From assembly GCA_025359865.1 (NCBI GenBank), contig JANYDH010000166.1, positions 1 through 24,000 on the forward strand: a stretch of 24,000 nucleotides of DNA, given 5' to 3'. The translations under genes were made by a program, and so were the position numbers. This DNA comes from Actinomycetes bacterium. Its GTDB lineage: Bacteria; Actinomycetota; Acidimicrobiia; Acidimicrobiales; Ilumatobacteraceae. The notes under the pieces are model-generated. The model saw nothing but the letters and a program-made list of their open reading frames with translations, had not been told where the DNA came from and did no database searches. Each line of letters opens with the position of its first letter. Position 1 is the stretch's first letter. Shown in pieces: positions 775-21,326 of the stretch.

Positions 775-3441
775 CTAGCCGCCCTGCGGGTTGGAGATCC
801 GCCACCGGTATTCGTTCTTGTCCAGTCGGTACACGATGTCGGTGGTGTTCTGATCCCAGTCGCGAGCCAACCAGCAGATCTCGCGGCTTGCCGACCCGGT
901 TTCGCCGAACACGGGTTCGCTGGTGGCCCGCCCGGTCGTGACTGCCAGATCAGGGTTCGCGATCCGCGCACCGTAATGCAGTGACACCTCGGCCGGCACG
1001 AACCCCAATGGGCCAAGGCCCTGCACGTCGAACAGCACACACAGATGACCGAACCCGGTGACCGGGTCGCGAGGCGTGATCCGCGACCCATCGACCACGA
1101 TCGAATCATCGAGGCCCGGAAGTGGCGGCGACGTAGTTCCCGGCGGCGACGATGTCGGTGGCGCTGTCGTTGCTGGTGCGGCCGTTGTGCTGGTGGTGGT
1201 TGCCGGTGTTGCGACGATCTCGGAGTTGCGTCGGCCGACCAGCACGATCACCGCCCCCACACCGGCCGCCACCACAAGCACTCCGAGCAAGAACTGAGGC
1301 ATCCGGGTCTGACGTTGCCGCGGGTACGTCTCCAGTGAAAGCGGGCGCGGTGGCGGCGCATCTCGCCCCGCTCCCAGCGAACGTCGCGCTTCGAAGCCAG
1401 CGCCCTTCAGCACGTCGAGTAAGGCATCACTGCGGGCTTCGGAAATGAGTTGGCCCAGTTCAGCGGCAGCGATCGGTGGCGTGCGCCTGGCGAGGCGAAC
1501 CGGCTCGGGACGAAACAGACCATGTCCGGTGGGGGCCTGGAGCACCCGGGGGTCGATCGGTAACTGGAACACTGGCGGGGCCAGGGTTGGCTCATCCAAC
1601 TGCGTTTCGACCTGATTCAGCGCCCAGATCAGGTCGTCGACCGAATGCGGGAAATCGGAATCGCGGCGGGCCATTCGCGACCGTTGTGCAAACGCCCGTT
1701 CAGCGGCAGGGCGATCTGCGTTGCTCGGTAGGCCGAGGATGAGATACGGCTGGCGTCGCGCTCCAAATGCTTCCGTGGCGTTGACGACGCCAAGATTGGA
1801 CTTCAACTTCTCGTCGTCATTGTCCAGCGAAGCCGAGAGCAACGATTGCCGAGCGTCTTGATCCCGACCCAGGAGCCAATGCGTACAAGCCAGCATGTTG
1901 TGAGCTTCGGTACGGGCAGGCCCGAACTCCGCAAGCCGCAACGCCTGTTTGCCGCAGGTCATCGCCCCGTGCAGGTCCGATGCCCACAAGCAGCGCTGCG
2001 TGCGACGAGCCGCCCACCACGCGAGGAACCTTCGCGCCGACCCGCCTTCCGGAGGGTCCCATGCGAGCGCTTCTTCGGTGAGGATCCGCTCAAGTAGACC
2101 CCACAGCGACTCATCGTCGGTGATCAGGTCACCCAGGTTGTCGACTGTTGGCGTGGCGAGAAACTCGGCAAGCACGTCGACGACTGGGCCTCCGACGTCG
2201 CGGAGAAGGTCATTCGCTTTGTGCTCGGCGACGAGTGTGCGAATTGACGCGATCAACGCGCTGTCAGGTCGGGTGGGCGACGGATCTGGGATCCGTCCGG
2301 CAAGCAGCACTCGTCGGTCACGTTCCTGTTCGAAATCGAGCATGTCGACTTCTTCATCGCTGAGCGCCAGCGGGTCGGTCCTGGCGGCGACGTAGGCGAC
2401 CCGCTCGCGATCCATCATCCGCAACGACTCGTCAGCAATGTGGAACTCGCGCTCGAGCAGGTCGTCGATGACCGAGAGCGGCACCTTGGCCGGCAGCTGT
2501 ACCGGTTCTGCCCGATCCCCCGCACCGGCCAACGCACGCAACGTGGTGACCGCAACAGAAGCAAACCCAACGGGAAGGGTAGCGATGGCGTCGAACGGTT
2601 CGGGCTTGGCCAACCATTCGACGAGCGGCGAACTTCGCCCCGACACTTTTGCGGCACCAGCCAGCGGCGACGTCGGCTCAACTGCCAGTAGTCGCTTTTC
2701 GAGCACCCCTCTCGCCCGGCGACCGGTTGCGGCGATCGGTGCGCCGGTACACAACACCAGCAGCCCCACCGCGGGCGCATACCTGCCGAGCGGGAGTTGA
2801 CCGAGGTGTTCCACAGCCTGGTCGAAGCGCTGAACGCGCAGATCTGCCAATGCAGACCACCAATGGATTTCGGCCGCCGACAACGGCAGCTGACCGATCG
2901 GAGCAGAGACCCCTACCGCAGCAAGATCCGCGGCCACACGGCGGGCGTAGTCGAGCCTGCCGCCTACAAATGTGGAAACGAGGATGCCGCGGGTTGCCAC
3001 CGACGACGTGAGCACAGGAAGCGGGAGGTGTTCCAGCGCGACGAGTGCGGCCCCCAGCCGGGACGACATCGCCGACAGGCCACGCACGCGTGTGAAATGT
3101 CGAAGTTGGCGCGCCGGGATCTTGCGTACCAAGCCGTTCTCGGTGAAAAGCGTTGCGCCGTGGGGGCTGTCGACCACGGCGATTGCGGCCCTCGAGCCGC
3201 GACCCCCGCCGAGGTACCCGACGCTAAGCGTTTCATCGGTGATGTCCTCGGCAGGTGCCATCGCCAGCGAAACACCACACAACTGACATGCCGCCTCGGC
3301 ACCCACGGGTGTGCCAGCGACCGCACTCGCGTCAACGCCCGCGTCAACGCCCGCGCCTGCGACGGGGTCAAGGACGGTCTTGAGCGCCCAACCGCATGCG
3401 AAGCACATCGAATTTTCACTCTGAAGGTCGGGTCCTTCCAT
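775..3441 (-). CDS. Large hypothetical membrane-anchored protein (888 aa): N-terminal CxxC...CxxC zinc-ribbon-like motif, helical/TPR-like region, J-domain-like segment lacking HPD, one TM helix, Thr/Pro-rich linker, about 110-aa C-terminal extracytoplasmic domain
   Basis: ORF with an ATG start and GC3-rich codon usage. CFAC(aa 13-16)...CQLC(aa 52-55). Aa 565-594 read PYLILGLPSNADRPAAERAFAQRSRMARRD, which resembles J-domain helices I-II but has RRD where HPD is expected. RQRQTR followed by MPQFLLGVLVVAAGVGAVIVLVG (aa 714-736) indicates a positive-inside TM helix. This is followed by TPATTTSTTAAPATTAPPTSSPPGTTSPP. Confidence 0.75.
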   Translation of the reverse strand: MEGPDLQSENSMCFACGWALKTVLDPVAGAGVDAGVDASAVAGTPVGAEAACQLCGVSLAMAPAEDITDETLSVGYLGGGRGSRAAIAVVDSPHGATLFTENGLVRKIPARQLRHFTRVRGLSAMSSRLGAALVALEHLPLPVLTSSVATRGILVSTFVGGRLDYARRVAADLAAVGVSAPIGQLPLSAAEIHWWSALADLRVQRFDQAVEHLGQLPLGRYAPAVGLLVLCTGAPIAATGRRARGVLEKRLLAVEPTSPLAGAAKVSGRSSPLVEWLAKPEPFDAIATLPVGFASVAVTTLRALAGAGDRAEPVQLPAKVPLSVIDDLLEREFHIADESLRMMDRERVAYVAARTDPLALSDEEVDMLDFEQERDRRVLLAGRIPDPSPTRPDSALIASIRTLVAEHKANDLLRDVGGPVVDVLAEFLATPTVDNLGDLITDDESLWGLLERILTEEALAWDPPEGGSARRFLAWWAARRTQRCLWASDLHGAMTCGKQALRLAEFGPARTEAHNMLACTHWLLGRDQDARQSLLSASLDNDDEKLKSNLGVVNATEAFGARRQPYLILGLPSNADRPAAERAFAQRSRMARRDSDFPHSVDDLIWALNQVETQLDEPTLAPPVFQLPIDPRVLQAPTGHGLFRPEPVRLARRTPPIAAAELGQLISEARSDALLDVLKGAGFEARRSLGAGRDAPPPRPLSLETYPRQRQTRMPQFLLGVLVVAAGVGAVIVLVGRRNSEIVATPATTTSTTAAPATTAPPTSSPPGTTSPPLPGLDDSIVVDGSRITPRDPVTGFGHLCVLFDVQGLGPLGFVPAEVSLHYGARIANPDLAVTTGRATSEPVFGETGSASREICWLARDWDQNTTDIVYRLDKNEYRWRISNPQGG

Positions 3442-3543
3442 TGCTCCCCAATGGGTTCGTCAGACGGCGGGACACTAATCGACTACAGCGCGGTTGAAGC
3501 TACCAATCATCATTGTTGGTTCGAGCGGGGTCGTCCCGAATAC

Positions 3544-4278
3544 TTACACGACCGTGACAGCGAACCGTCCAATGCCGGCGAACACTGCAGCGGCAGCCTG
3601 CATGTCGGCAGCTGATGCCTCGTTCAGCTCCGGCATCATTGGCCGGACCCCGTGACACCGGAACCCGATCAGCTTGACCCGCATCGCCGGGTCGACGGCG
3701 GCCAGCCAGGCCGCTGTGCGGTGTAAGAGCGCGGGATTGTCGTTGACGCCGGGCACGAGTAGCAGTCGAACCTCATAGAGCCGACCAGCGCGCTGAAGGT
3801 ACCGGATCGACTGCAGCACCTGATCGTTCGGCTGGCCCGTCAGGCGATAGTGGATCTGCGGATCAAGGCACTTCAGGTCGACCATCGCCCCATCCATCAC
3901 GGGGAGCAGATCGTCCCACGTACGCTCATCAGCCGCTCCATTGGTGTCGACGAAACAGGTCAGCCTCTGCAAGCCGGCGTCGTGGTTGATCGCAGTGAAC
4001 AATGCCCCGACGAACGACGCCTGCTGCGTCGCCTCTCCTCCCGACACCGTGATGCCTGACAGAAAGGGGGCCGCTTGCCCAATCTGTGTGAGGAGTGACT
4101 CGATGGTCCTCAGGCGGGCTTTCGACGCACCATCGATCGGACAGGCGATCGTTTGCGGGTTGTGGCAGGCGACGCAGTTGAAGTTGCAACCCTGGAGGAA
4201 CACCACGAACCGGTTGCCAGGCCCGTCCACACAGGAGAACGAGACGGTGTCAGCGACGAAGCCGTGGAGCGAGCTCAT
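3544..4278 (-). CDS. Glycyl-radical-enzyme activating enzyme (radical SAM, PflA/YjjW-like), 244 aa
   Basis: From the internal ATG at 4278 the protein reads MSSLHGFVADTVSFSCVDGPGNRFVVFLQGCNFNCVACHNPQT, which contains the CX3CX2C radical-SAM cluster motif at the N-terminus as in GRE activases. ITVSGGEAT matches the GGE SAM-binding motif. The size fits the family. The 130 upstream codons of the 374-aa track ORF overlap the preceding gene out of frame and look like non-coding translation. Confidence 0.85.
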   Translation of the reverse strand: MSSLHGFVADTVSFSCVDGPGNRFVVFLQGCNFNCVACHNPQTIACPIDGASKARLRTIESLLTQIGQAAPFLSGITVSGGEATQQASFVGALFTAINHDAGLQRLTCFVDTNGAADERTWDDLLPVMDGAMVDLKCLDPQIHYRLTGQPNDQVLQSIRYLQRAGRLYEVRLLLVPGVNDNPALLHRTAAWLAAVDPAMRVKLIGFRCHGVRPMMPELNEASAADMQAAAAVFAGIGRFAVTVV

Positions 4279-5800
4279 GGCAGCCGACACGCTGTACAGC
4301 ACGTTCAGAGAGGTGGAAGGCGGCTTCCGACCCGGCCGCGAGGTAGTCGCTGGCGTGGCGCGCCCCAGATACGGCAATGTCGACGAGGTCGCGCTTGCGA
4401 ACGAGATAGCCGGTGATCCGGATGAACTCGTTCGAGTCCAGATTGAAGGTGAAGTCACGCATCCCCGACTCCAATGCCCCGCGGATGATGTCGACCACCG
4501 CCTGTGGGTTGCGGACCGCAGTCTCGTCGAAGTGGACGATGTCGCTGATACCAGCGGGAAACAGGCGGTGATGCGGTGCGCAGGTGGCGATGTGTTGAAG
4601 TAGCGGCGGTTCTTCGCCGACCGGGATGCGGGTGCCAGCAGTGACATTCTGGTCAAGATCGATGCCACCTTGGGAATGCAATGAGGCGGTTCCGTTACCT
4701 CCGGCGCAATACGGCTGGGGACGGGCCGCGACCAGTTCGGCCACCCGCTCGATCACGCGGTACGAGACCTGATCGGCGGACACGTCGTGTCCGTACCGGC
4801 CCGAGCCGCCCTCACATTCGATCAACCGGTTGACGGCTTCGGCCAGACCGAACACACCGAACATTGCCGTGAACCTGTCGATCGAGATCAATCCCTCCGT
4901 CGCCAGCCAATTCGTCTCGAAGAAGTGTTGCTGATCAACCAGGCTGCGCACGCGGGCCTCGATCAGTTCCGAGGTGAGCGCCACATACTGAGGGAGCGTG
5001 TCGGCGAGAAAGGCATCGACGCCGCCCGAATGACGCAGTACCACCTCGGCCAGATTCAGCCGCACGAGCGTGTGAGCGCCGCCTCCGATCTTCAGCGAGT
5101 TGTAACAGCTCACAGCGGCGTATCGCGGGCCGTGATCGCCGACCATCATCGGGTGATTGACGAAGTGAGGCTTCCCAGTCTCGAACACGGTGTGGACGGC
5201 GTCGAGCAGCAAGTCGTCCGGCGTCAGCAACGGATCGACTTTCAACGTGATGTTCGGCACCACTTGCCGCAGTGAACGCTCAACGCGCAGGATTGACCGG
5301 GTGATCCGGCTGTCGGTGGGGCCGAGATCGAGATGAACGAATGCATCAGGCAGCATCCGGTCGAGGCCGATCCAGAATCGGCGAAGCTTGTCATCCAATT
5401 GTTCGTCGGTGATGCCGTCGACGAACCGTGCAAGTACCTTGTCGAGGTCTCCCAAATACACCGGGTAGGTCGTCACCGACGGCACGTGGGTGTACATGAT
5501 CTGTAGGAACGCCAACGCGTCGTCCAAGACGAGTGGTGCATCGAGCTCGAGATGCTTCGACCCGTTGGCGAGCGCCAATTCGTAGTCGGGCAGCACGTAG
5601 CGCGGCGTGAAGGGAGCGTGGCCCTCATACAGGTCGCAGATCACTCGCTTGTCGAGCGCTTCGCGACATTCGGGCGACAACGCCGGGTAGTCGAGGGCAT
5701 CGGTCGCTAGCGCGGCCAACCGGCGAACCTTCTGGTCGTAGCCGAGTGCACCGTCTTGGACCAGCGCGAGTACCAGGTCGCGGAACTCGTTCATCTCCAT
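4250..5800 (-). CDS. Short glycyl radical enzyme, YjjI family (DUF3029-like), 516 aa
   Basis: The C-terminal segment FIRITGYLVRKRD matches the glycyl-radical motif R-[VI]-[ST]-G-Y-x-V-R of PFL-type enzymes. The gene sits immediately upstream of, and overlaps by 29 nt, a GRE activase. Its length of about 516 aa is typical of the YjjI clade, whereas classical GREs are 750-850 aa. Start chosen at ATG 5800 (MEMNEF...), preceded by GGAGGTGA with 4-nt spacing (7 nt after the GGAGG core). The track ORF begins at GTG 5845. Confidence 0.72.
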   Translation of the reverse strand: MEMNEFRDLVLALVQDGALGYDQKVRRLAALATDALDYPALSPECREALDKRVICDLYEGHAPFTPRYVLPDYELALANGSKHLELDAPLVLDDALAFLQIMYTHVPSVTTYPVYLGDLDKVLARFVDGITDEQLDDKLRRFWIGLDRMLPDAFVHLDLGPTDSRITRSILRVERSLRQVVPNITLKVDPLLTPDDLLLDAVHTVFETGKPHFVNHPMMVGDHGPRYAAVSCYNSLKIGGGAHTLVRLNLAEVVLRHSGGVDAFLADTLPQYVALTSELIEARVRSLVDQQHFFETNWLATEGLISIDRFTAMFGVFGLAEAVNRLIECEGGSGRYGHDVSADQVSYRVIERVAELVAARPQPYCAGGNGTASLHSQGGIDLDQNVTAGTRIPVGEEPPLLQHIATCAPHHRLFPAGISDIVHFDETAVRNPQAVVDIIRGALESGMRDFTFNLDSNEFIRITGYLVRKRDLVDIAVSGARHASDYLAAGSEAAFHLSERAVQRVGCHELAPRLRR

Positions 5801-5896
5801 CAGGTCACCTCCACGCATGCATGGACAACCAACATCAGCCGTCACTTCGACGCTACGACGCCCACGACAATGCGACCAGAGTCAAAGGTCACCACT

Positions 5897-5939
5897 GTCG
5901 TTGCCTGTGCCGTTGCCTGTGTCGTTGCCTGTGTCGTCT
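5897..5939. repeat. 12-nt tandem repeat, 3 full copies plus a partial copy (plus strand gtcgttgcctgt / gccgttgcctgt / gtcgttgcctgt / gtcgtct)
   Basis: Read directly from the sequence. It lies in the rpsG - GRE intergenic spacer. The mRNA-sense unit is ACAGGCAACGAC. Confidence 0.85.
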
Positions 5940-5958
5940 GGGCGAACCCAAACGACAC
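5931..5958 (-). terminator. Strong hairpin 6 nt after the rpsG stop codon: 12-bp stem with a UUCG tetraloop and no U-tract
   Basis: The minus-sense sequence is GUGUCGUUUGGG-UUCG-CCCAGACGACAC, giving 11 Watson-Crick pairs plus one G-U pair. The 3' arm is the first (partial) unit of the adjacent 12-nt repeat array. Without a U-tract it could be an mRNA 3'-end stabiliser or processing site rather than a classical intrinsic terminator. Confidence 0.4.
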
Positions 5959-5964
5959 GACCGG

Positions 5965-6435
5965 TTACCAGCGGTAGTGCGCGAAGGCCTTGTTGCTCTC
6001 GGCCATCTTCTGCATGTCGTCACGACGCTTGATCGCCGCACCGAGGCCGTTGGCCGCATCGAGGATCTCGCCGCCGAGGCACTCGGCCATCGTCTTTTCG
6101 CGACGCTTGCGGCTGAAGTCGACTAGCCACCGGATGGACAATGTGCCAGCACGTCGCGGGCGAACCTCGACAGGCACCTGATACGTGGCGCCACCGACGC
6201 GGCGGCTACGCACCTCGAGGGGCGGCTTGATGTTGTCGATGGCACGCTTGAGCGTGGCAATCGGCTCAGCACCAGACTTCTCTTCGACGATTTTCAACGC
6301 GTCGTAGACGATCTTTTCGGCAACAGTGCGCTTGCCGTGGAGCATGACCTTGTTGATGATCTGGGTGACCAACAACGAACGGTAGAGCGGGTCGGGAGTG
6401 AGCTCACGACGCTGGGCGGGACCTTTACGGGGCAT
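5965..6435 (-). CDS. rpsG: 30S ribosomal protein S7
   Basis: [44 protein letters not shown]...KAFAHYRW is a canonical S7 sequence from end to end. The gene lies directly downstream of rpsL. Confidence 0.97.
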
Positions 6436-6468
6436 CTGACATCACGCTTTCTTGGTCTCGACCGAGGA

Positions 6469-6840
6469 CTACTTGGCCTTCTTGGCGCCGTAACGGCTGC
6501 GGGCCTGCTTGCGGTTCTTCACTCCGGCTGCGTCGAGCGCGCCACGAATGATCTTGTAACGCACGCCCGGCAGGTCGCGGACGCGACCACCGCGCACGAG
6601 CACGATGGAGTGCTCTTGAAGGTTGTGGCCCTCGCCGGGGATGTAGGCGGTGATCTCGACACCGCTGGAGAGACGGACACGAGCCACTTTACGCAGCGCG
6701 GAGTTCGGCTTCTTCGGGGTGTTGGTGTACACGCGAGTACAGACGCCGCGGCGTTGCGGCGAACCCTTGAGTGCAGGAGTCTTGGTCTTGGAGAACTTGG
6801 TGCTGCGTCCCTGACGGACCAGCTGCTGAATTGTGGGCAC
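6469..6840 (-). CDS. rpsL: 30S ribosomal protein S12
   Basis: (V)[56 protein letters not shown] is canonical S12. The start is placed at GTG 6840, since S12 proteins begin MPTIQQL. The track ORF's 5 extra codons (MKGAC) are probably not translated. Confidence 0.95.
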
Positions 6841-6922
6841 GCATGCGCCTTTCACTGTGTTGAACTACGGTGGCCTGACGGCTACCTCGAGAGCACCGTT
6901 CACCGGCGCACAGGACCGTGTA

Positions 6923-6951
6923 ATGCTAGAGGCGCGCAGCCCATGAGGCAA
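6923..6951 (-). promoter_or_regulatory. Candidate sigma-A type promoter for rpsL-rpsG
   Basis: The minus-sense sequence is TTGCCT - 17 nt - TAGCAT (TAnnnT -10 type), about 80 nt upstream of the rpsL start. This is a motif match only. Confidence 0.3.
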
Positions 6952-7004
6952 CCTGCCCGGCAAGCCGTTGAGGGAACCTCAGTCGAGTTTCTTGATGACG
7001 CCGC

Positions 7005-7142
7005 TCAGTTGAGCACGATGGCGGCGAACCCGGCCATGATCGCCACAGCGAACCACGGAAAAGGGCTACGGGTGACTACCGCGTGCGGCGTCGGGTCGTG
7101 ATGCATCACGCTCACGTGTCGGTGTCTCAGATGTCCGGTCAT
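7005..7142 (-). CDS. Hypothetical small His-rich membrane protein (45 aa)
   Basis: MTGHLRHRHVSVMHHDPTPHAVVTRSPFPWFAVAIMAGFAAIVLN has 7 His in the first 21 residues followed by a C-terminal hydrophobic helix. The ATG is preceded by GGAGG with 8-nt spacing. Third codon positions are GC-rich like the real genes here. An alternative GTG start at 7202 would give 65 aa. Confidence 0.4.
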   Translation of the reverse strand: MTGHLRHRHVSVMHHDPTPHAVVTRSPFPWFAVAIMAGFAAIVLN

Positions 7143-7244
7143 GGGGTGCACCTCCGCGTCGCATCGTGCGGAACAAGCCGTTCCGTCGAAATGTGTCCCC
7201 ACGATGGTCCGTCGCCATCACGCCGGTGCCAGGAGGCTGACCGC

Positions 7245-7279
7245 GAAACGAGACCCGGGAGGTGAGTCCCGGGTCTCGT
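7245..7279 (-). terminator. Intrinsic terminator candidate downstream of rpoC
   Basis: The minus-sense sequence is ACGAGACCCGGGA-CUCACC-UCCCGGGUCUCGU followed by UUUCG. This is a perfect 13-bp GC-rich stem about 50 nt after the rpoC stop, with a short U-tract. Confidence 0.55.
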
Positions 7280-7329
7280 CGATGAACGAACTGATTTTGC
7301 CTTGCGGGCAGGCACCGAAGGCCTCAACG

Positions 7330-11211
<3,882 letters not shown>

Positions 11212-11243
11212 CGCAGTTCCTCTTTTCGTCTTGTCAGGTCTGA

Positions 11244-14200
11244 TCAGTAGCTGCGCTCGCGGCGTGCTGCCCGCTCACGGTCGTCTTCGTCGGTGCCGCG
11301 TTCGTTGCGACTGATATCGATGCCGAGTTCTTCGGCGGCGCGGAACACGTCTTCGTCGATCTCGCGCATCTCGATCTCGGTACCGTCAGCTTGCAGCACC
11401 TCGACGTTGAGGCACAACGCCTGCATCTCCTTCATGAGCACCTTGAAGCTCTCGGGGATGCCCGGCTCGGGAACGTTCTCTCCCTTGACGATCGACTCAT
11501 AGACCTTGACTCGGCCGAGCACATCGTCGGACTTGATCGTGAGCAGTTCTTGCAGGCAGTACGCCGCACCGTAGGCCTCGAGGGCCCACACTTCCATTTC
11601 ACCGAAACGCTGGCCGCCGAACTGAGCCTTACCACCAAGCGGCTGCTGGGTGATCATGCTGTACGGGCCGGTGGAACGGGCGTGGATCTTGTCGTCGACC
11701 ATGTGCGCCAACTTGATGATGTACATGTATCCAATGGTGATCCGGTTGTCGTACGGGTCGCCTGTGCGGCCGTTGTACAACACGGTCTTACCATCGGTAC
11801 CGATCAGTCGGTCGCCGTCCACCGTCTCGGGATTGATGTTTTCGAGAATGCTCTGGATGGTCGGGTGCTTGCCGGCGGTTTCATCCTCATCCCAGTGGGC
11901 ACCGTCGAACACCGGCGTGGCCACGAACATCGACGGCTTGGTGTTGGGGCGGGTCTTGGTCTCGGTGCCGCGGATCGGTTCGTCGCCAACCTTGACGCCG
12001 CCGTTCTTGACGTCGGTCCAGCCCCAGCGGGCTGCGTAACCGAGGTGTGCTTCGAGCACCTGGCCGACGTTCATGCGGCTCGGCACGCCGAGCGGGTTGA
12101 GGATGATATCGACCGGGCTGCCGTCAGATGTGTAGGGCATGTCTTCGACCGGAAGGATCTTGGAGATGACGCCCTTGTTGCCGTGGCGACCAGCGAGCTT
12201 GTCACCCACCGAGATCTTGCGCTTCTGGGCAACGTACACGCGCACCAACTGGTTGACGCCCGGGGGCAACTCGTCTCCCTCGGCACGGTTGAACACCTTG
12301 ACGTCGATGACCTTGCCGTTTTCACCGTGCGGCACCTTCAGGCTGGTGTCGCGCACCTCGCGGGCCTTTTCACCGAAGATCGCCCGCAGCAGACGCTCTT
12401 CCGGCGTGAGCTCGGTCTCACCCTTTGGCGTGACCTTGCCGACGAGTACATCGCCGGGGCCGACTTCAGCACCGACGCGGATGATGCCACGATCGTCGAG
12501 ATCGCGCAGGATGTCGTCGGACAGGTTGGGGATGTCACGGCTGATCTCTTCCGGTCCCAGCTTGGTGTCACGGGCATCGACCTCGTGCTCATGAATGTGG
12601 ATCGACGTGAGTACGTCGTCTTTCACGAGCCGCTCGCTGAGGATGATGGCGTCTTCGAAGTTGTAACCCTCCCATGGCATGAGGGCCACGAGTAGGTTCT
12701 TACCGAGCGCCAGTTCGCCATGATCGGTCGATGGACCGTCGGCGAGGATGGTGCCCTTTTCGATCTTTTCGCCTTCGACCACGCGTACCCGGTGGTTAAT
12801 GCAGGTGTCTTGGTTGCTGCGCCGGAACTTGGCGAGTTTGTAGGTCTGCTTGCCGGTGTCGTCGTACTGCACGGAGATGGAATCGCCACTGACCTCGGTG
12901 ACCCTGCCAGGGCCGGTGGCCTGGATGAGATCGGCCGCGTCACGCGCCGCACGGTCTTCGATACCGGTACCGATGTATGGCGCTTCAGCGCGGACCAAGG
13001 GCACGGCCTGGCGTTGCATGTTGGCACCCATGAGCGCCCGGTTGGCATCATCGTGCTCAAGGAACGGGATGAGTGCAGTCGCTACCGACACGATCTGGCG
13101 CGGGCTGACGTCCATCAACTGCACCTCGTCGGGCGTGACAGAGGCGATGTCGGTCGTCGCCGCAAAGAACGCTTCGGCTTCGAGCATCTGCTTGAGGTCT
13201 TCGAGGCTGGCCGCCTGGGGGCTGCGGCGACACAGGATGCGGTCGGTCTTGAACGATCCATCTGCGTCGATCGGTGTGTTGGCCTGGGCGACGACGTACT
13301 TCTCTTCCTCGTCGGCGGCCATGTACCGAATCTCGTCGGTGACCTTGCCATTGACGACCACACGATACGGCGTCTCGATGAAGCCGAACTCGTTGACACG
13401 GGCAAACGTGCTGAGTGCGCCGATCAGGCCGATGTTCGGGCCTTCCGGGGTCTCGATGGGGCACATCCGGCCGTAGTGACTGAAGTGCACATCGCGGACT
13501 TCGAAGCCGGCACGCTCACGACTGAGCCCGCCGGGCCCGAGGGCCGACAGACGACGGCGGTGGGTGAGACCGGACAGCGGATTGACCTGGTCCATGAACT
13601 GCGAGAGTTGGCTGGTACCGAAGAACTCTTTGATGGCCGCAACGACGGGGCGAATGTTCACCAAGGTGGTCGGCGTGATGGCCTCGACATCTTGGGTGGT
13701 CATCCGCTCGCGAACGACGCGCTCCATGCGGCTGAGGCCGATACGAACCTGGTTCTGGATCAGTTCGCCTACCGAACGGATACGGCGGTTGGCAAAGTGG
13801 TCTTGGTCGTCGAGGCTGTATCCGGGCTCTTGCTTGACGAGGTGGAGCATGTAGCTGAGTGCAGCCACCACCTCACACCGGCTGAGCACATCCTGGTCGT
13901 CGGTGGGCAGGTCGAGCAGCGGTCCGCTCAGCCCTGGGGGCCCGGCCACCGTGGGCTCGTCACTCGTGAGGCCGAACAGTTCGCCCAGCTTGGCAACTTC
14001 GGAGCCGAGCTTGCGGTTGAGCTTGTAGCGACCGACGCGCGACAAGTCGTACCGGCGGTTCTCGAAGAACGCGTTACGGAAGTAGGCACGGGCGGACTCG
14101 ACCGTGGGCGGCTCACCGGGGCGGGCACGCTTGTAGATCTCGACCAATGCCTCGTCCTGGGAGGGGGCGATGTGGCGCTCTTTTTCCCACTGCCCTTCGA

Positions 14201-14888
14201 GAAAGTCGAAGTGGTTGACGAACCGGTCGATGAAACCCGGGGCGTGCTCTTCGTCGTAACCGAGCGCACGCAACAGCACGAAGATGCCCATCCGGCGCTT
14301 GCGGGCAATACGGGTACCGGCGGTGACGTCCTTGCCGGGCTTGTGCTCGACATCGAACTCCATCCACTCGCCGCGGTATGGGTGCACCGTGCCCTTGACA
14401 AGCTGGTGCTTGCTGAGGTTGCGCAAACGGTACCGCTCGCCGGCTTCGAAGATGACGCCAGGGCTACGCACCAGTTGGCTGACGACGACACGCTCGGTGC
14501 CGTTGATGATGAACGTTCCCTTTTCGGTCATCATCGGGAAGTCGCCCATGAAGACGGTCTGTTCTTTGATTTCTCCGGTGTTGCGGTTCATGAACCGAGC
14601 GCGCACGAAGATCGGCGCGCTGTACGTCATGTCCTTTTCTTTGCATTCGGCCACCGTGAACTTGGGCGGCGGACGGAGATCTTCGTCATCCGGATCGAAC
14701 TCGAGTTCGAGCTGCAGCGACTCGCTGAAGTCCTTGATCGGCGAGATGTCGCGGAATGTCTCTGCGAGTCCCTCGTTCAGGAACCACACAAAGCTCTCAC
14801 GTTGCACGGCGATCAGGTCGGGCAACTCCAATGGATCTTGAAGGTTGGCGAACGAATAACGTTCGCGGGAGGTGGAACGAGAGGCCAC
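11244..14888 (-). CDS. rpoB: DNA-directed RNA polymerase subunit beta
   Basis: 1214 aa. Contains [30 protein letters not shown] (the rifampicin-cluster region) and ...[23 protein letters not shown] start with a GAGGAG Shine-Dalgarno sequence 7 nt upstream. Confidence 0.98.
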
Positions 14889-14981
14889 AGCTTCACTCCT
14901 CGAGGTCGGGCGGCAAGGGGACGCGCGCGGTCATACCGACAAGAGCAAGATGACGGAACACACAACGCACGGCAACCGGTG

Positions 14982-15011
14982 ATCCTATCCACATGGGACG
15001 ACCAACGTCAA
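14982..15011 (-). promoter_or_regulatory. Candidate promoter for rpoBC
   Basis: The minus-sense sequence is TTGACG - 18 nt - TAGGAT, about 95 nt upstream of the rpoB GTG. This is a motif match only. Confidence 0.3.
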
Positions 15012-15144
15012 CCGTCGACGGCCTTTGGCCGAACGGTTCATCCGATGGGAGAACGGTAAGCCCGAATCCGTCAGAAAGTCAAGGATTTCGATCCAATCCT
15101 CGACAACTGACGCGCCGGCTGGCGCCATCAGGCAGACTCAGATC

Positions 15145-16419
15145 ATGCAGGAGGCCGGCCCAGCGGGCGTTGATCACTGGTTGGCGATTCTCTCAGGCCC
15201 GCGCACCTGGATCGACGACGACGCCGGCCGGTCAGGCGTACAGCGACTTGCCGGGGGCCTGCAAATCCTGGCTGCGCTGTGCGCCTCCAGCGCTGTCGTC
15301 GCGCTGTGGGCCCGCAACAGGCCCGCTGGCACCCAGGTCGTGGCGCGCCTCGCCCCATTCGGACTGGGCTTGGCGATGGTAGGGATGATCGCTCGATCGC
15401 TCATCGAAGGGCTAGGCGTCGAGCGAACGGCATCGGCACTGTGGCGGAATGTGCCGACCCGTGGGCTTCTCGCGTTGCTGCTGTTGGGTTCGTTGTACGC
15501 AATGACGCCAGGCTGGCCGGCACTCGTGTCGTGGCCGCTCGGCGTTGCAATTGGCTGCGATGTTGCGGCAACAACTTCATTGATCGGCTGGACCTTGTCC
15601 CCGCTGGGGTGGTGGACAGCGTTCCTGCGTTCACCATTGCACCTCGGGGTGATCGGCGGACTCGTCGGCGCCGCCGTTGCCAACGACTCCGGCGGGACGG
15701 TCGCCAACGCGCTACCGGTGTACGCCGTGATCCAGACTTGGGTGTTCGTCGCGGCGATGACCATGTGGTGGCTCCGCCGGATCCGGGTATCGGAACGTAC
15801 CGGCGTGCTCGACGCGATCCGCCAGACAGCCCACCTCGAGCGACGACGAAGCGCTCACTGGTTGCACGACGATCTGCTCGCCGAGCTCCGCCTCGTCACG
15901 ATCAAGGTGCAAAGCGGTAAGGCCAACCTCGCTGAGGTGGAAGTCCTCCTCGACGACCTCGACTTTCAACTCCGCGTCCGCCAACTCGACCAATTGCTGG
16001 ACTCAGGAACGATCCGGGTCGGTGAGGCGCTGCAACCGTACATTCGTCGTGCTCAGAATTTCGGCGTCGAGATCGTGGCCGTGCCGTCATATGACACGGC
16101 GTCGCTGACGCTGGAGCCCGAAGCCGGCAGGCTGTTCAGCCATGCAGCCGCAATTCTCACGTCGAACGCACTCAACGCAGGCGCCCACCGCCTTGGCTTC
16201 CACATCGACGGGAACACATCGCTGCTCACCCTCACCATCACCGACGACGCCGGGGGCTTCGATGCCTCCGAACTTCCCGCCGGTCGCGGCTTGTGGACGC
16301 TCGCCCAGGATCTCGGCGCCACCAATGTGACTGTGCACCCCGTCGACGGCGGCAGTCGGGTCGAGGCAGTCATCCCGCTCCACACGAAACAAGATCATGG
16401 CGCAACTGCTGCTGGTTGA
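15145..16419 (+). CDS. Sensor histidine kinase, HisKA_3 (NarX/DesK-like) type, with a polytopic membrane N-terminus and no obvious periplasmic domain
   Basis: Several hydrophobic helices occupy the first ~230 aa. The H-box ERRRSAHWLHDDLLAEL is followed by a HATPase_c-like C-terminus (NALNAG...ITDDAGGFD...GRGLWTLAQ). Start chosen at ATG 15145. The track ORF start at 15025 is a TTG, and the true start is uncertain. Confidence 0.8.
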   Translation: MQEAGPAGVDHWLAILSGPRTWIDDDAGRSGVQRLAGGLQILAALCASSAVVALWARNRPAGTQVVARLAPFGLGLAMVGMIARSLIEGLGVERTASALWRNVPTRGLLALLLLGSLYAMTPGWPALVSWPLGVAIGCDVAATTSLIGWTLSPLGWWTAFLRSPLHLGVIGGLVGAAVANDSGGTVANALPVYAVIQTWVFVAAMTMWWLRRIRVSERTGVLDAIRQTAHLERRRSAHWLHDDLLAELRLVTIKVQSGKANLAEVEVLLDDLDFQLRVRQLDQLLDSGTIRVGEALQPYIRRAQNFGVEIVAVPSYDTASLTLEPEAGRLFSHAAAILTSNALNAGAHRLGFHIDGNTSLLTLTITDDAGGFDASELPAGRGLWTLAQDLGATNVTVHPVDGGSRVEAVIPLHTKQDHGATAAG

Positions 16420-17104
16420 CGACGCGAGTGCGCTCGCCGAACTCTTCGCGGACGTGATCCGCTCGACGCTCGGCCATGAGGTCGCCGTCGCCGTGACGCT
16501 GCGCGACGTGTCAGCCGTGCTCGGTCGGCTCTCTCGCCTCGATCTTGCTGTGGTCGATCTGTCGTTTCCACAGGAGCCGGGAAGCGGCCTCGATGCGCTG
16601 GTCGAGATTCACGCGGCGCGGCCCGAAGCGCTCCTCGCAGTCATCACCCAAGGCGATGACTGGGTCGCTGAACTCCTGCGCGATGCCTGGGAGCTGCTAC
16701 CGGTCGCCACCGTGATCTCGAAGAGCGCTCCGCTCGCGTACCAACTCGATGCGATCAGCCAAGTCATCGAGCACGGTTGCGCTCCAATCGACCCGGCGAT
16801 TCAGCCGTTGCTCCCGCTTCACCGGCCCTCGGCTCGTACCGTCGCTCGATTTGGCGAACTCGTTCAACATGCCGGGCACGCCAAGCTGTGGAACGCACTG
16901 CTCGCTTCGACCGACCCGTCATACAAGCAGATCGCTGACCTGTCCGGGTTGAAACTGAACACAGTGAAGAATTACCGCGTTCAACTGTTACCCGAACTCG
17001 AAGTCCACGGCTTGCACGAGCCGACTCTGCGCCAGATGCGCGACTTCGCGGTGCGCTGCAAAGCCTTTCTCACACCATTCCTCAACGTGGCCCCAACAGT
17101 GTGA
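16397..17104 (+). CDS. Response regulator: REC domain, extended linker and a C-terminal LuxR/NarL-like HTH
   Basis: LLLVDD, DLAVVDLSFP (phospho-acceptor Asp context), AVITQG and ISKS are REC landmarks. The C-terminal SYKQIADLSGLKLNTVKNYRVQLLPEL resembles a LuxR-type HTH. The ATG overlaps the kinase 3' end by 23 nt. Confidence 0.8.
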   Translation: MAQLLLVDDASALAELFADVIRSTLGHEVAVAVTLRDVSAVLGRLSRLDLAVVDLSFPQEPGSGLDALVEIHAARPEALLAVITQGDDWVAELLRDAWELLPVATVISKSAPLAYQLDAISQVIEHGCAPIDPAIQPLLPLHRPSARTVARFGELVQHAGHAKLWNALLASTDPSYKQIADLSGLKLNTVKNYRVQLLPELEVHGLHEPTLRQMRDFAVRCKAFLTPFLNVAPTV

Positions 17105-17463
17105 ACCGCTGGGTCACCTCGTCGATCGCCTTTTCAATCGGGCTCGGAGGTTCATTCGTGGCGTTCACCAGCAACGAGTCGACCCTCAACGCAGTCAACC
17201 AGGGCGCCAAGCTTGGCCCAGCAACGGTGACGAGCTACTGCCAGGAGCGATTCGGTTCAACCGGCTTCGGCGTGTTGCCGCTGCTGCCAACAGGCAGGTG
17301 GAGCTGTACGAGTGCGGTCAATGGGCTGTTCAACACCGTCGACGTCGACCTCGACGAGGTCTGTGGGCAGAAGTACGGCAAGCCGGCATACGCCGCAGTG
17401 TTCGATGCGTCCACGCCGTTCGGCTGGGACTGCCGTCGCGGCCAATCTCCAGCGCCGGGGTGA
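17101..17463 (+). CDS. Hypothetical small exported/membrane-anchored protein with 4 Cys (120 aa)
   Basis: The GTG start forms a GTGA overlap with the regulator's stop codon. There is an N-terminal hydrophobic segment (VTSSIAFSIGLGGSFVAF) and four spaced cysteines. I recognise no family. Confidence 0.55.
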   Translation: MNRWVTSSIAFSIGLGGSFVAFTSNESTLNAVNQGAKLGPATVTSYCQERFGSTGFGVLPLLPTGRWSCTSAVNGLFNTVDVDLDEVCGQKYGKPAYAAVFDASTPFGWDCRRGQSPAPG

Positions 17464-17503
17464 CCCACACACCTCGCCCGTCGTTAACTTGCCCGGCATT
17501 AAC

Positions 17504-19096
17504 TCAGCCTGCGGCATTGGCCTTTTCGAAGACGGCAATCAACTCATTTGCCTGGCGAGTCAACTGCACCAGCGTCTCATGCGCCGTGGTCGTTCCCGAG
17601 ACCAACGCTTCTGTCGCGGCGAAGAGCAATCGTTCGATCTCTTTGTCCGGGCCGTACAGCGCTCCAGCGGTCGCGTCGCTGCCTGAGGTGGAGACCAACT
17701 GGTCGTAGGCCACGCGGAACTGTGGATGCGCTGCCCAGGCGCGTTGCACCGAGGGGTCATCGGCGACGATTTCGCTCGGCGGAACGTAACCGGTAACAGC
17801 ATCGAGCGGGCCTAGGTGTTCCGGACGGACCAGCCACAGTGCAACGTCGTTCGCCGCGCCGACTCGTGACGGATCGCCGTTGTCGATCAGCCACAACGCG
17901 TTGCCTCCGACGAGAGCGCCCACGCCCGGCCCAGGCATAGGACCAACCCCAACCTCGATGCCAGGGAACGATCCCGACTCGACAAACTGGATGACATCAC
18001 CCAAAGAACCCGACGTGTGCACCACCATCGCGCCCCCGGAGGCGGGTGTCCCGACCTGGATCAGATCGTCATAGGTCGAGTTGTTCCCACCGATGAATTG
18101 CCCGTCGCCAGTGGCGACGAGATCGGACAGCCACTGCAGCGCCGTCTCGTTGTCCGGCGTCACATAGTCGACCGTTATCCCATCGCCATTTCGACCGTTG
18201 GCAGGGCTAGCGACGAGATCACCGCGTTGTGCTGACCACTGGTTGATGACCATCGAGGCGTACCAGGTGGTAACTACCATGCCAAAGGGTCGTGCGCCCG
18301 ACGTGACCAGCTGCCGAGACGCAGCGCGCACCTGCTCGAGGGTGGCTGGCGGATGCGCTGGATCGAGTCCCGCAGTCCGAAACGCCGCTGCGTCGAAGAA
18401 CAACACCGGTGTGGACACACCGTAGGGATACGCCTGCATCACGCCGCCGCTGCTGTAGGTCGCGGCGACGACCGGGAGCAGACCCGCGTTGATGTCCGCC
18501 TGCCCAGCGCACTCGCCTGGCGCAACCGTGAGGTTGTTCGTCATGAACCGTTTCATGGCCGACGGTGCTTGGATCACCAGATCTGGCCATGCCGAGCGTT
18601 CGGTCTCCGCGAGATGGGCCATGAGCGACTCGGAGCCGCCCTGCCAGGTGACCACCAGCGTGATGGAAGGGTGGGTGGCGTTGAACTCGGCCACCTGGCC
18701 ATCGAACGTATCGGGGCCCGCATAGCCACCCAACGAGTGCCAGACGCTGACGTCGGTATGGCCCTGCGCAGCTGAACACCGACTCGCTGCAGGCAACGCC
18801 GCTGTCTCGGGATCGGTTTCGGGCTCGGTTTGTTCCTGCGTGCCGTTCGGTTCGGTGGCGGTGGCCGGTTGGGCGTCGGTGGCCGGCATCTCCGGCGTCT
18901 CCGTCGTCTCGGTCGTCTCGGTCGGCGACGTTCGCGAAACGCTAGCGGTGGACAGATCAGCCCCCGGGGCCGAAGTACCACTGCCCGAACAGGCCACCAG
19001 GACAACGACGCCGAACAACCCCAGCGTCTTGTTCAAACGCACGCTACGAACTCGGTGGCGAGGCGTCGCTGCTACATCTCGGTGGTGCACGATCAC
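17504..19096 (-). CDS. ABC-transporter extracellular solute-binding lipoprotein (family 1, sugar/glycerol-phosphate-like); orphan, with no permease or ATPase nearby
   Basis: Lipobox LVAC within RLNKTLGLFGVVVLVAC|SGSG, followed by a TETTETTETPE-type low-complexity linker. The core contains YPYGVSTPVLFFDAAAFRTAGLDP, typical of SBP_bac_1 proteins. The track start is GTG 19096. GTG 19042 (VRLNKT...) would give a more typical signal peptide. Confidence 0.82.
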   Translation of the reverse strand: MIVHHRDVAATPRHRVRSVRLNKTLGLFGVVVLVACSGSGTSAPGADLSTASVSRTSPTETTETTETPEMPATDAQPATATEPNGTQEQTEPETDPETAALPAASRCSAAQGHTDVSVWHSLGGYAGPDTFDGQVAEFNATHPSITLVVTWQGGSESLMAHLAETERSAWPDLVIQAPSAMKRFMTNNLTVAPGECAGQADINAGLLPVVAATYSSGGVMQAYPYGVSTPVLFFDAAAFRTAGLDPAHPPATLEQVRAASRQLVTSGARPFGMVVTTWYASMVINQWSAQRGDLVASPANGRNGDGITVDYVTPDNETALQWLSDLVATGDGQFIGGNNSTYDDLIQVGTPASGGAMVVHTSGSLGDVIQFVESGSFPGIEVGVGPMPGPGVGALVGGNALWLIDNGDPSRVGAANDVALWLVRPEHLGPLDAVTGYVPPSEIVADDPSVQRAWAAHPQFRVAYDQLVSTSGSDATAGALYGPDKEIERLLFAATEALVSGTTTAHETLVQLTRQANELIAVFEKANAAG

Positions 19097-19138
19097 AGTC
19101 TGACCCGCCCGGAAACTATTCCCGCTTCAACGACAGCA

Positions 19139-19621: not shown

Positions 19622-19663
19622 TACGAATTGTTGACTACGAATTGTTGACTACGAATTGTTGAT
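19622..19663. repeat. 14-nt tandem repeat x3 in the rplJ-rplL spacer (plus strand tacgaattgttgac x2, then tacgaattgttgat)
   Basis: Read directly from the sequence. The mRNA-sense unit is (G/A)UCAACAAUUCGUA. The last copy abuts the rplL Shine-Dalgarno sequence (AAGGGAGAAACCAUCAUG). Confidence 0.9.
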
Positions 19664-19683: not shown

Positions 19684-20217
19684 TCAGGCCGCTTCCTTTT
19701 GATCGATGAGCGCCTTGAGGCCATAGGCCAGATTACGCGGCAACGCCTGCAGTAGGCCGGCTGTCTTGACGAGCGGGGCCTGCAATGCGCCTGCGAACTG
19801 AGCGAGGAGAACCTCACGGCTCGGCAGTTCGGCGAGGGACTCGATATCGATGGCTCGCAATGCCTTGCCGGCCATCACGCCGCCCTTCAGGACGAGCAGC
19901 GGGGTGGCCTTCGATGCGTCTCGCAATGCCTTGGCCACCGCGGCTGGATCTCCGCTGACGAATGTGATGGCAGTAGGACCGCTGAGCAATTCGCTCAGCG
20001 ACGCAACGCCTGCACGCTCGGCGGCAAAACGGGCCAGGGTGTTCTTGTACACCTTGAACTCGCCTCCGCCGGCGCGAAGCTGGCGACGCAGTGCTGCCAG
20101 CTGGCCAACGCTGAGACCGCGATATTCCGCCACGAAGACCGCATCGGCGGCCTCCAGCTTGGCCGTGATCTCATCGACCACGGCAACCTTTTCGACTCTT
20201 GGATTGTCGGTTGTCAT
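19684..20217 (-). CDS. rplJ: 50S ribosomal protein L10
   Basis: MTTDNPRVEKVAVVDEITAKLEAADAVFVAEYRGLSVGQLAALRRQLRAGGGEFKVYKNTLARFA is canonical L10. ATG 20217 is preceded by GAGAGGAGG. The 40 upstream codons of the track ORF are leader sequence. Confidence 0.9.
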   Translation of the reverse strand: MTTDNPRVEKVAVVDEITAKLEAADAVFVAEYRGLSVGQLAALRRQLRAGGGEFKVYKNTLARFAAERAGVASLSELLSGPTAITFVSGDPAAVAKALRDASKATPLLVLKGGVMAGKALRAIDIESLAELPSREVLLAQFAGALQAPLVKTAGLLQALPRNLAYGLKALIDQKEAA

Positions 20218-20447
20218 TTTCCTGTACACCTCCTCTCGGGGGGTGACGTAGCTCTCGCTACGACTTGGGGTGCCCGCGTGAGCGAACACCCCGAGGAGCA
20301 AGAGTTCCGTAAGGAACACGAACCACTCGGAAAGCATTCACCTCGGCTGGTGGGGCGAACCCATTGACCCGTGAGGGACCAGCGGTCTGCGGCGAGCGAC
20401 CGTATTTCGATTGAACCTACAGGCTACCGCCTACCGGTGGCTGATCG
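20218..20447 (-). promoter_or_regulatory. Structured 230-nt rplJ 5' leader (candidate L10-L12 autoregulatory leader and/or internal promoter)
   Basis: An unusually long spacer after rplA. Hairpins visible in the mRNA sense include GUUCC-UUAC-GGAAC, GGGGUG...CACCCC and CGUAGC-GAGA-GCUACG (GNRA loop). The function is inferred from the known L10 leader autoregulation in other bacteria and has not been matched to a covariance model. Confidence 0.3.
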
Positions 20448-21204: not shown

Positions 21205-21326
21205 GTGGTGGTGTGATGTAGCGGTGTGATGTAGTGGTGTGATGTAGTGGTGTGATGTGGTGGTGTGATGTAGCGGTGTGATGTAGCGGTGTGATGTAGC
21301 GGTGTGATGTAGCGGTGGCTGATCAG
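21205..21326. repeat. 13-nt tandem array: 8 full copies plus degenerate flanking copies, filling most of the rplK-rplA spacer
   Basis: Plus-strand units start at 21210, 21223, 21236, 21249, 21262, 21275, 21288 and 21301. They read ggtgtgatgtagc (x5), ggtgtgatgtagt (x2) and ggtgtgatgtggt (x1). A degenerate 9th unit, ggtggctgatcag, contains the rplK stop codon. The period is not a multiple of 3. Confidence 0.92.

Follow-up and report, generated by a model that had tools for sequence, protein, structure and literature searches.

The 24,000-nt stretch of the Ilumatobacteraceae contig JANYDH010000166.1 (hereafter the window) very probably encodes a functional YjjI/YjjW system, comprising a glycyl-radical enzyme (GRE) and its activase, in the form of a self-contained two-gene cassette that landed after rpsG, at a break in the rpsL-rpsG-fusA-tuf order, in one small Ilumatobacteraceae clade. 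All coordinates refer to the whole window, and all genes of the locus lie on the minus strand. The cassette comprises the following features.

4250-5800, minus strand: yjjI, encoding a 516-aa YjjI-family glycyl-radical enzyme (hidden Markov models, alignments, AlphaFold2 and Foldseek)
3544-4278, minus strand: yjjW-like activase gene, short form, encoding a 244-aa single-domain radical S-adenosylmethionine enzyme (hidden Markov models, alignments and AlphaFold2)
4250-4278, minus strand: 29-nt overlap of the yjjI 3' end and the yjjW 5' end (seen in the sequence)

A first-pass annotation of the window had read the 516-aa product as a YjjI-type GRE, and profile searches bear this out. TIGR04040 was matched at 643.8 bits against a curated cutoff of 498.3 (residues 10-502, model positions 3-496 of 497), and PF11230 (DUF3029) was matched at E = 1.4e-186 over model positions 1-484 of 485. 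Full-length identity to E. coli YjjI is 47%, and many proteins from metagenome-assembled genomes (MAGs) of Ilumatobacteraceae and other Actinomycetota reach 74-79%. The radical glycine, G464 (codon 4409-4411), lies within RITGYLV, and its conservation was upheld, the motif R[IV]TGY[LM]V being found in all 86 yjjI loci examined. The glycine-loop motif EFIRITGYLVRKRD occupies residues 457-470 and is followed by 46 further residues; the earlier placement of the motif at the very end of the protein was therefore incorrect. C232 (codon 5105-5107), within VSCYNSL, is the only invariant cysteine, and G464, R461, T463 and S231-C232-Y233-N234 were invariant in alignments of 19 and 38 sequences (30-78% identity). 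All testable sequence-level defining features are present, and by sequence the 516-aa protein is a genuine YjjI. At E <= 0.01 PF11230 was the only Pfam family reported, with no match to Gly_radical (PF01228), the PFL-like family (PF02901) or NRDD; some relatives carry precomputed matches to PF02901 and PF13597, weak or faint where a strength is shown. The family is compact, with 482 clusters (50% identity) at E <= 0.001 among 1.84 billion representatives, many of them fragments. Compared with its counterpart in L086, an independently assembled relative (GCA_043788465.1) with 98.9% nucleotide identity to the window, yjjI had a ratio of nonsynonymous to synonymous polymorphism (pN/pS) of 0.10 (rpoC, 0.008). 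The gene is under clear purifying selection.

The enclosing open reading frame (ORF) of yjjI spans 4250-5845, and the 516-aa protein begins at ATG 5800 (MEMNEF...), the start also called in L086. A Shine-Dalgarno sequence, GGAGGTGA, lies at 5805-5812, 5 nt 5' of this ATG. Because of the position of the Shine-Dalgarno sequence and the N-termini of homologues, ATG 5800 was preferred as the start; a GTG at 5845, which would give 531 aa, was ruled out on the same grounds.

An AlphaFold2 model of YjjI was built on 38 diverse homologues and reached a predicted local distance difference test score (pLDDT) of 90 and a predicted template modelling score (pTM) of 0.89. In the model C232 and G464 each lie at the tip of a beta-hairpin (strands E227-230 and E234-237 for the cysteine hairpin), which is where the finger loops of GREs would be expected to carry them. 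In the active-site comparison proposed earlier, the cysteine is followed by Y-N (C-Y-N) instead of forming the Cys-x-Glu motif of pyruvate formate-lyase (PFL)-like enzymes. A Foldseek search of the PDB returned 137 matches at E <= 0.001, and the best 50 of these 137 were all NrdD or PFL-like GREs. The top 20 were all class III ribonucleotide reductase NrdD (E to 7e-18, TMq 0.62-0.75, 13-16% identity), followed by PflD, YbiW, HypD and other PFL-like enzymes (TMq 0.57-0.72). As modelled, YjjI has the glycyl-radical superfamily fold, i.e. a beta/alpha barrel of ten strands in which one finger loop bears the Gly and another the Cys. A sequence search of the PDB with YjjI gave only a spurious match (E = 0.54), and no PDB chain was detectably related.

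Profile comparison of YjjI with E. coli NrdD was weak (P = 47%, E = 2e-4) and anchored YjjI GGGxHTLVRLNL on NrdD GRNNLGVISLNL. In this alignment, of low to moderate reliability, the position of NrdD C175 is a gap in YjjI, with no cysteine nearby. No CxxC pairs occur in YjjI residues 400-516, the NrdD-type Zn site is missing ahead of the glycine loop, and the Pfam matches include no ATP-cone. The predicted structure is that of a barrel resembling NrdD but with another kind of active site, built on one cysteine. YjjI was therefore not filed as a ribonucleotide reductase, being NrdD-like but with a single cysteine and devoid of a C175 equivalent, Zn-binding CxxC pairs and an ATP-cone.

The overlap of the two genes is exactly 29 nt, as first described. 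In 33 of 86 loci, that of E. coli K-12 among them (7516-7544 in L002), a yjjW start codon stands at -29 relative to the yjjI end, and the remaining loci mostly overlap by 4, 8, 11, 20 or 26 nt (range 4-26). The yjjI/yjjW overlap, and with it probable translational coupling, characterises the family. Retention of the exact 29-nt overlap between E. coli and many Actinomycetota implies a joint constraint on the C-terminal tail of YjjI and the N-terminus of YjjW.

In the proposed mechanism the activase would, under anoxia, bind one [4Fe-4S] cluster via C31, C35 and C38 and reductively cleave S-adenosylmethionine, as expected from family chemistry. The resulting 5'-deoxyadenosyl radical would abstract a hydrogen from G464 of YjjI. 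The stable G464 radical would then transiently oxidise C232, located on the finger loop opposite, and the thiyl radical so formed would abstract a hydrogen from the substrate. The overlapping frames would couple translation of YjjI and the activase, and expression would most likely proceed from a dedicated promoter in the rpsG-yjjI spacer and not by read-through from the str operon. A 41-aa in-frame deletion has left the activase free of its auxiliary-cluster domain, with the architecture of a PFL activase.

Short activase and loss of the ferredoxin-like domain

The product of the second gene had been described as a textbook GRE activase. The description holds for the cluster motif C31-x3-C35-x2-C38 (CNFNCVACHN; 4165-4188) and for SGGEAT (residues 79-84), both of which are present; it fails for the ferredoxin-like insert, which is absent. 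Pfam matches were to Radical_SAM and Fer4_12, with none to Fer4_7. The best NCBIfam match was TIGR04041 (YjjW), in two stretches and at 237.0 bits, below the cutoff of 250.2; it was ahead by 100 bits of TIGR02493 (PFLA; 136.6 bits, cutoff 231.75). TIGR04041 scores were 314-396 bits for long activases and 212-228 bits for other short forms.

E. coli YjjW has 287 aa and the window activase 244. When the latter was aligned with E. coli YjjW, the L001 activase and P0365, it showed a precise 41-aa gap, with the deletion junction after I44 (about 4144-4146). The missing segment carries the two Cys-rich ferredoxin-like motifs. Relative to P0365, the closest long-form activase (77% identical in aligned columns), the gap corresponds exactly to VCNNCGECV...DACIAA, and the window activase keeps the trailing CPIDGASKA, matching CPIDATPKA of P0365. 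Between the cluster motif and GGE there are 41 residues with one cysteine. Across 76 actinobacterial yjjI loci, 32 activases were of this short form (36-43 residues, 0-1 Cys) and 44 were of the long form (81-85 residues, 7-8 Cys). In neighbour-joining trees of YjjI and of the activase core, the window short form nests in a long-form clade (L001, L003-L006 and L021), and the YjjI tree requires at least four long/short activase changes overall. Because of the exact gap relative to P0365 and the retained CP segment, these alignments indicate that the window lineage lost the ferredoxin-like domain by its own clean in-frame deletion and, because its form nests among long-form lineages in both trees, that it did so independently. 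Judged by the same comparisons, losses of this domain are recurrent in Actinomycetota, and short activases are conserved across deep divergence. The loss in the window lineage is recent, its closest long-form relative still being 77% identical. An assembly error was considered as the source of the short activase and ruled out, since L086 carries the same 244-aa gene, P0364 (87% identical) also has 244 aa, and 32 of the 76 loci are short.

The number of insert cysteines varies among long YjjW proteins. Most from Actinomycetota (loci L003-L060) have seven, the second motif being C-x3-D-x-C-x3-C, not CxxCxxCxxxC, while E. coli and one Acidimicrobiia group retain eight. The second auxiliary cluster site may already have been degenerate in lineages that later lost the domain.

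The AlphaFold2 model of the activase (pLDDT 91.9) superposes on the E. coli PFL activating enzyme (PFL-AE) over its whole length, with a template modelling score of 0.82-0.85 and a root-mean-square deviation of ~2.9 Å. The model and the sequence together point to a single-domain architecture like that of PFL-AE in a protein derived from YjjW. According to a 2026 review, most GRE activases contain a ferredoxin-like domain, only PFL-AE and the ribonucleotide reductase activating enzyme (RNR-AE) being without it, and the role of the domain is stated to be unknown (PMC13450708). The missing insert is no refutation of activase function, given that the domain is also absent from PFL-AE and NrdG and that the model superposes on PFL-AE; the auxiliary features that the first-pass annotation had made a test of the assignment are absent, and the assignment nevertheless stands. 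Short YjjW-derived activases (P0366, P0375, P0377 and others) carry the JGI label 'pyruvate formate lyase activating enzyme'. This label, together with scores below the NCBI YjjW cutoff, is a likely source of wrong formate-lyase metabolic inference in Actinomycetota.

Several observations weigh against a functional system. YjjI does not match the generic Gly_radical model of Pfam, and the literature searched contained no experiment on any YjjI-family member, so that radical formation and chemistry are taken from homology. The activase pN/pS vs L086 was 0.50 (13 nonsynonymous and 9 synonymous differences), which could hint weakly, the changes being few, that constraint was relaxed once the deletion had occurred. 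It is conceivable, but improbable, that the system is decaying in a presumably largely aerobic lineage, the deletion having inactivated the activase and left YjjI as a remnant beyond activation. The pN/pS of 0.50 as compared with 0.10 for yjjI would agree with decay, as would a sub-cutoff activase devoid of the domain found in E. coli YjjW and in its closest long relatives; in 4-hydroxyphenylacetate decarboxylase, moreover, the domain is reported to be needed for a lasting radical (cited in PMC13450708). However, yjjI is under purifying selection with all invariant residues intact, the deletion is exactly in frame, and both frames are open in two independent assemblies and in P0364. Ferredoxin-less YjjW is also maintained beside intact yjjI in at least three other actinobacterial lineages, PFL-AE and NrdG function without the domain, and the activase model is confident and PFL-AE-like. 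A functional YjjI/YjjW pair is thus the preferred explanation. Matched long and short activases in one orthologous family offer a natural experiment on the role of the ferredoxin-like domain and, were the fuller version of the nucleoside proposal given below to hold, this repeated natural loss would in addition show the domain to be dispensable for glycyl-radical installation in the family.

Substrate, neighbourhoods and physiology

The statement that no substrate is established for the YjjI clade agrees with the literature and structures searched: no paper characterising YjjI, YjjW or DUF3029 or assigning a substrate was found, nor was a solved structure in the PDB giving YjjI a substrate. 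The 2026 GRE review apparently does not mention the YjjI family under that name (PMC13450708). With regard to regulation, FNR acts directly as an activator of yjjI in E. coli (PMC3688515), and yjjI of Yersinia intermedia is 4.3-fold up without O2 (PMC3792023).

Gene neighbourhoods were surveyed for conserved partners, as had been suggested. Across phyla yjjW was the only universal one; nucleoside genes recurred in about four strong cases, and other neighbours were lineage-specific. In ~20 Propionibacteriales loci a divergent Bmp/PnrA-ABC-permease-cdd-add cluster (encoding cytidine and adenosine deaminases) lies by yjjI. In L043, from a Propionibacteriaceae MAG (10001-17633), genes of a nucleoside-type ABC transporter (ATPase, permease and Bmp) stand between yjjI and yjjW, splitting the pair. 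Proteiniborus (Clostridia) has the order Bmp-ABC-permease-permease-rpoN-yjjI-yjjW on one strand, a Bmp homologue is found just upstream in L076 and L082, E. coli yjjI is divergent from deoCABD and, as a weak case, deoA lies 6 kb away in L066. The recurrence of nucleoside uptake and catabolism genes is suggestive as a weak functional lead. Several neighbours considered as pathway partners, including Lhr helicase, multicopper oxidase, argCJ, fumarase and the CCA-adding enzyme, were set aside as lineage-specific.

The NrdD-like fold, the single cysteine and the nucleoside-gene association underlie a tentative proposal for the substrate: during anaerobic growth YjjI may carry out a non-reductive radical transformation, of the dehydration or lyase type, with a nucleoside, nucleotide or pentose phosphate as its substrate. 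A fuller version, in which YjjI would be an NrdD-derived radical enzyme acting non-reductively on such a compound, e.g. by 3'-hydrogen abstraction as in ribonucleotide reductases followed by 2'-dehydration or elimination, is somewhat more doubtful. Four points count against a nucleoside role. The gene link amounts to about four strong cases plus L066 in ~40 context types, against a rough chance expectation of ~0.6. Other contexts are unrelated, mostly heterogeneous housekeeping genes (AddAB with CheW, topoisomerase III, arginine deiminase genes, an electron-transfer flavoprotein/lactate cluster and Ku/LigD). In L177 (303-8374) yjjI-yjjW lies 187 nt downstream of napA-napG-napH-napB-napD on the same strand, and in E. 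coli and Salmonella yjjI co-clusters with narG (narGHJI) and shares NarL/FNR-like motifs (PMC3228777).

The last two of these points would suit a role of YjjI in nitrate- or nitrogen-oxide-linked anaerobic metabolism in place of nucleosides. Such a role is unlikely: the nap adjacency is a single genomic case among ~40 context types, the nar co-expression could reflect shared FNR control, and no nitrogen-metabolism neighbour of yjjI occurs in 80 actinobacterial loci. Less probable still is that YjjI is a minimal NrdD that makes deoxynucleotides and thereby serves as an alternative ribonucleotide reductase under anaerobic conditions. The closest solved structures are all NrdD, some YjjI relatives carry weak Pfam NRDD matches, genomic ties to nucleoside metabolism exist, and the stand-alone pair of enzyme and activase resembles nrdDG. 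Nevertheless, the C175 position is gapped in YjjI (P = 47%) and C232 is the sole invariant cysteine, identity to NrdD is only 13-16%, neither the CxxC...CxxC Zn site nor the ATP-cone is present, and E. coli possesses nrdDG besides yjjIW. Moreover, mutants of E. coli in nrdD do not grow in strictly anaerobic conditions, and yjjI is therefore no substitute for nrdD.

To our knowledge YjjI is apparently the last E. coli GRE without a known substrate. The NrdD-like model with a single catalytic cysteine, together with the modest nucleoside link, narrows the substrate screen. If the nucleoside proposal were true, it would reveal an unrecognised anaerobic route of nucleoside use in facultative and in nominally aerobic bacteria, among them many Actinomycetota of soil and fresh water.

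Position after rpsG, distribution and expression

The surroundings of the cassette, from the spacer outwards, comprise the following features.

5801-5964, minus strand: rpsG-yjjI spacer, 164 nt (sequence; alignment of six variants from related contigs)
5850-5893, minus strand: candidate yjjI promoter, with block GGTGACCTTTGACTCTGG at 5876-5893, a 17-nt variable spacer and a -10-like TAGCGT at 5850-5855 (conservation only)
5896-5937: 12-nt tandem repeat, minus-strand unit CAACGACACAGG, 3.5 copies (Tandem Repeats Finder score 77)
5931-5958, minus strand: hairpin immediately following rpsG, with a stem of 12 bp and a UUCG loop but without a U tract (minimum free energy fold)
5965-6435, minus strand: rpsG (S7), upstream neighbour of yjjI (translation; Ribosomal_S7 in identical proteins of L086-L093)
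6469-6855, minus strand: rpsL (S12) (translation; Ribosom_S12_S23 in L086)
7330-11211, minus strand: rpoC
11244-14888, minus strand: rpoB
17504-19096, minus strand: extracellular solute-binding protein gene, 530 aa
19230-19607, minus strand: rplL
19684-20337, minus strand: rplJ
20448-21152, minus strand: rplA
21323-21748, minus strand: rplK
21785-22510, minus strand: nusG
775-3441, minus strand: 888-aa ORF, 102 nt downstream of the activase gene, same strand

The cassette had been said to occupy the slot where fusA-tuf normally follow rpsG, and a survey of metagenomic loci with S7 proteins 60-78% identical, in which elongation factor G (EF-G) was scored by its P-loop motif AH[IV]D[AHS]GK[TS]T, confirmed this order: the motif was found within ~375 nt after rpsG in 71 of 76 informative loci. 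L098 was examined as an exception and dismissed, its EF-G lying ~750 nt further downstream. The adjacency of rpsG and yjjI is kept in eight further contigs of the clade (L086-L092 and L001). L086 has the same order, rpoB-rpoC-rpsL-rpsG-yjjI-yjjW-890-aa ORF, and in six short contigs with identical S7 YjjI begins 150-200 nt after rpsG despite diverged spacers. L001 (GCA_963853535.1), with a YjjI 76% identical, has the same gene order except for an inserted DUF222 gene. In L001 the 10 kb that follow yjjI contain no called EF-G gene, and the annotated parts of the window yielded none either; the region is therefore a breakpoint or large insertion and not a simple two-gene insertion.

Outside this clade the cassette is found elsewhere. 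Among 81 actinobacterial yjjI loci only L001 has rpsG or rpsL adjacent, with neither near yjjI in the other 80, and the actinobacterial cassette occurs in ~30 different contexts. A genome scan with a seq-alignment of seven sequences confirmed at least 595 yjjI relatives among species-representative genomes, making the family a common one, and these include nominally aerobic genera such as Dactylosporangium and Nocardioides. By its distribution, yjjI-yjjW behaves as a mobile two-gene cassette, common in Actinomycetota and found in varied contexts. The location after rpsG is real, limited to one small Ilumatobacteraceae clade and probably without functional meaning; embedding in a translation locus, singled out in the first-pass annotation as unusual, is better viewed as a clade-specific accident. 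YjjI/YjjW is a widespread orphan family that has already been named, and the locus is no discovery in itself.

The position of the pair about 165 nt after rpsG, with a hairpin and repeat array in between, was essentially as first described (164 nt, 12-bp hairpin, 12-nt repeat). The folding of the whole spacer gave z = -2.4. Each clade contig has a hairpin after rpsG, the sequences differing, and that of L001 is a canonical GC-rich stem with a T run; the hairpin at 5931-5958 is probably the 3'-end or terminator structure of rpsL-rpsG. A terminator scan found terminator-like sites to be no commoner than in shuffles. The 12-nt repeat has ~2.5 copies in L086 and L087 and ~5 in L088, and L090 has another repeat unit. 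A search of Rfam over 3300-7400 at E <= 1 gave only a chance snoRNA match below threshold, indicating a spacer without a known riboswitch or leader.

Alignment of six diverged spacers revealed an invariant block, GGTGACCTTnGnCnCTnG, and an invariant GGAGGTGACC before the yjjI start codon. A stretch of 17 nt, variable in sequence but fixed in length, separates T(G/A)G(Y)C(S) from TA(S)(S)GT. Downstream of its DUF222 insertion, L001 retains ACCTTCGTCCCT, the 17-nt interval and TACGTT, the last only 6 nt ahead of ATGGAGATG. These comparisons make it most likely that yjjI-yjjW has its own promoter, read-through from rpsG being possible and not required. A generic sigma-70 scan, which detected no promoter in the spacer, speaks against this, as does the possible read-through; because of the null scan, the promoter proposal rests on conservation across contigs. 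The partial co-transcription with the str operon suggested earlier is unlikely as the main mode, given the hairpin after rpsG and the conserved promoter-like block that survives the DUF222 insertion. It is barely credible that the pair is tied to translation, e.g. co-transcribed with rpsL-rpsG and modifying a ribosomal component or sensing oxygen for the translation apparatus: it does lie on the same strand as rpsG, and the adjacency outlasts spacer divergence in the eight further contigs, but 80 other actinobacterial and 9 other-phyla yjjI loci have no ribosomal genes nearby, a hairpin or terminator and a conserved promoter-like element intervene, and L001 tolerates a reverse-oriented gene between rpsG and yjjI.

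Further observations concern the surrounding region. The DUF222 gene of L001 (8690-9901) is reverse-oriented and lies in a 1.5-kb insertion between rpsG and yjjI; members of the DUF222 family often occur together with HNH and mobile elements. In L095 (968-2496), whose S7 is the most similar outside the clade (80%), neither EF-G nor YjjI occurs within 1.5 kb after rpsG, and the break in the str operon may therefore predate the insertion of yjjI or have a wider distribution than it. The rplL-rpoB adjacency is also broken in the window, by ~4.3 kb (15000-19100) holding the solute-binding protein gene, indicating that the ribosomal/RNA polymerase super-operon is broken in more than one place; a plus-strand ORF at 16397-17104 has a weak response-regulator receiver match. 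Tandem repeats occur in other gaps, at 21210-21317 between rplK and rplA (13-nt unit, 8.3 copies) and at 19622-19662 between rplJ and rplL (14-nt unit, 2.9 copies). The 888-aa ORF had no match in Pfam, NCBIfam or a PDB sequence search. It is syntenic in L086 (98.7% identical, 890 aa there) and L001 (52%) and absent from the other 80 yjjI loci, with no linkage to yjjI outside L086 and L001. By eye its product has Cys pairs close to the N-terminus and one hydrophobic segment, FLLGVLVVAAGVGAVIVLVG, after which come a linker rich in Thr, Pro and Ser and, last, a C-terminal domain. The 5' end of the ORF itself contains another tandem repeat (3328-3355; 12-nt unit, 2.3 copies).

Comparison with known systems

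The system most similar to that of the window is E. coli YjjI (b4380)/YjjW (b4379). Both YjjI proteins have 516 aa, the R[IV]TGY glycine loop and the SCYNSL cysteine loop, and the gene order and 29-nt overlap are the same. The two systems differ in that E. coli YjjW carries a ferredoxin-like insert (CxxCxxCxxxCP ... CxxCxxCxxxCP) that the window activase has lost, and in that yjjI neighbours deoC in E. coli and rpsG in the window.

Class III ribonucleotide reductase NrdD provides the best structural match to YjjI and is likewise a GRE with a dedicated activase in a two-gene unit; its activase NrdG, like that of the window, is without the ferredoxin-like domain. In contrast to YjjI, NrdD possesses C175, a Zn-ribbon and an ATP-cone, and the YjjI finger loop between the cysteine and the conserved (R/S)LNL strand is shorter. 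PflA (PDB 3CB8/3C8F/8FO0) resembles the window activase in being single-domain, in length (245 vs 244 aa) and in sequence (27-28% identity), but the partner of the window activase is YjjI, not PFL, and its single-domain state is secondary, by deletion. Lastly, the PFL-like GREs (PflD, YbiW, HypD, CutC and the glycerol and propanediol dehydratases) share the superfamily fold with YjjI, which has a single catalytic cysteine as in the dehydratase and lyase classes, whereas YjjI is ~250-300 residues shorter and has C-Y-N in place of their Cys-x-Glu motif.

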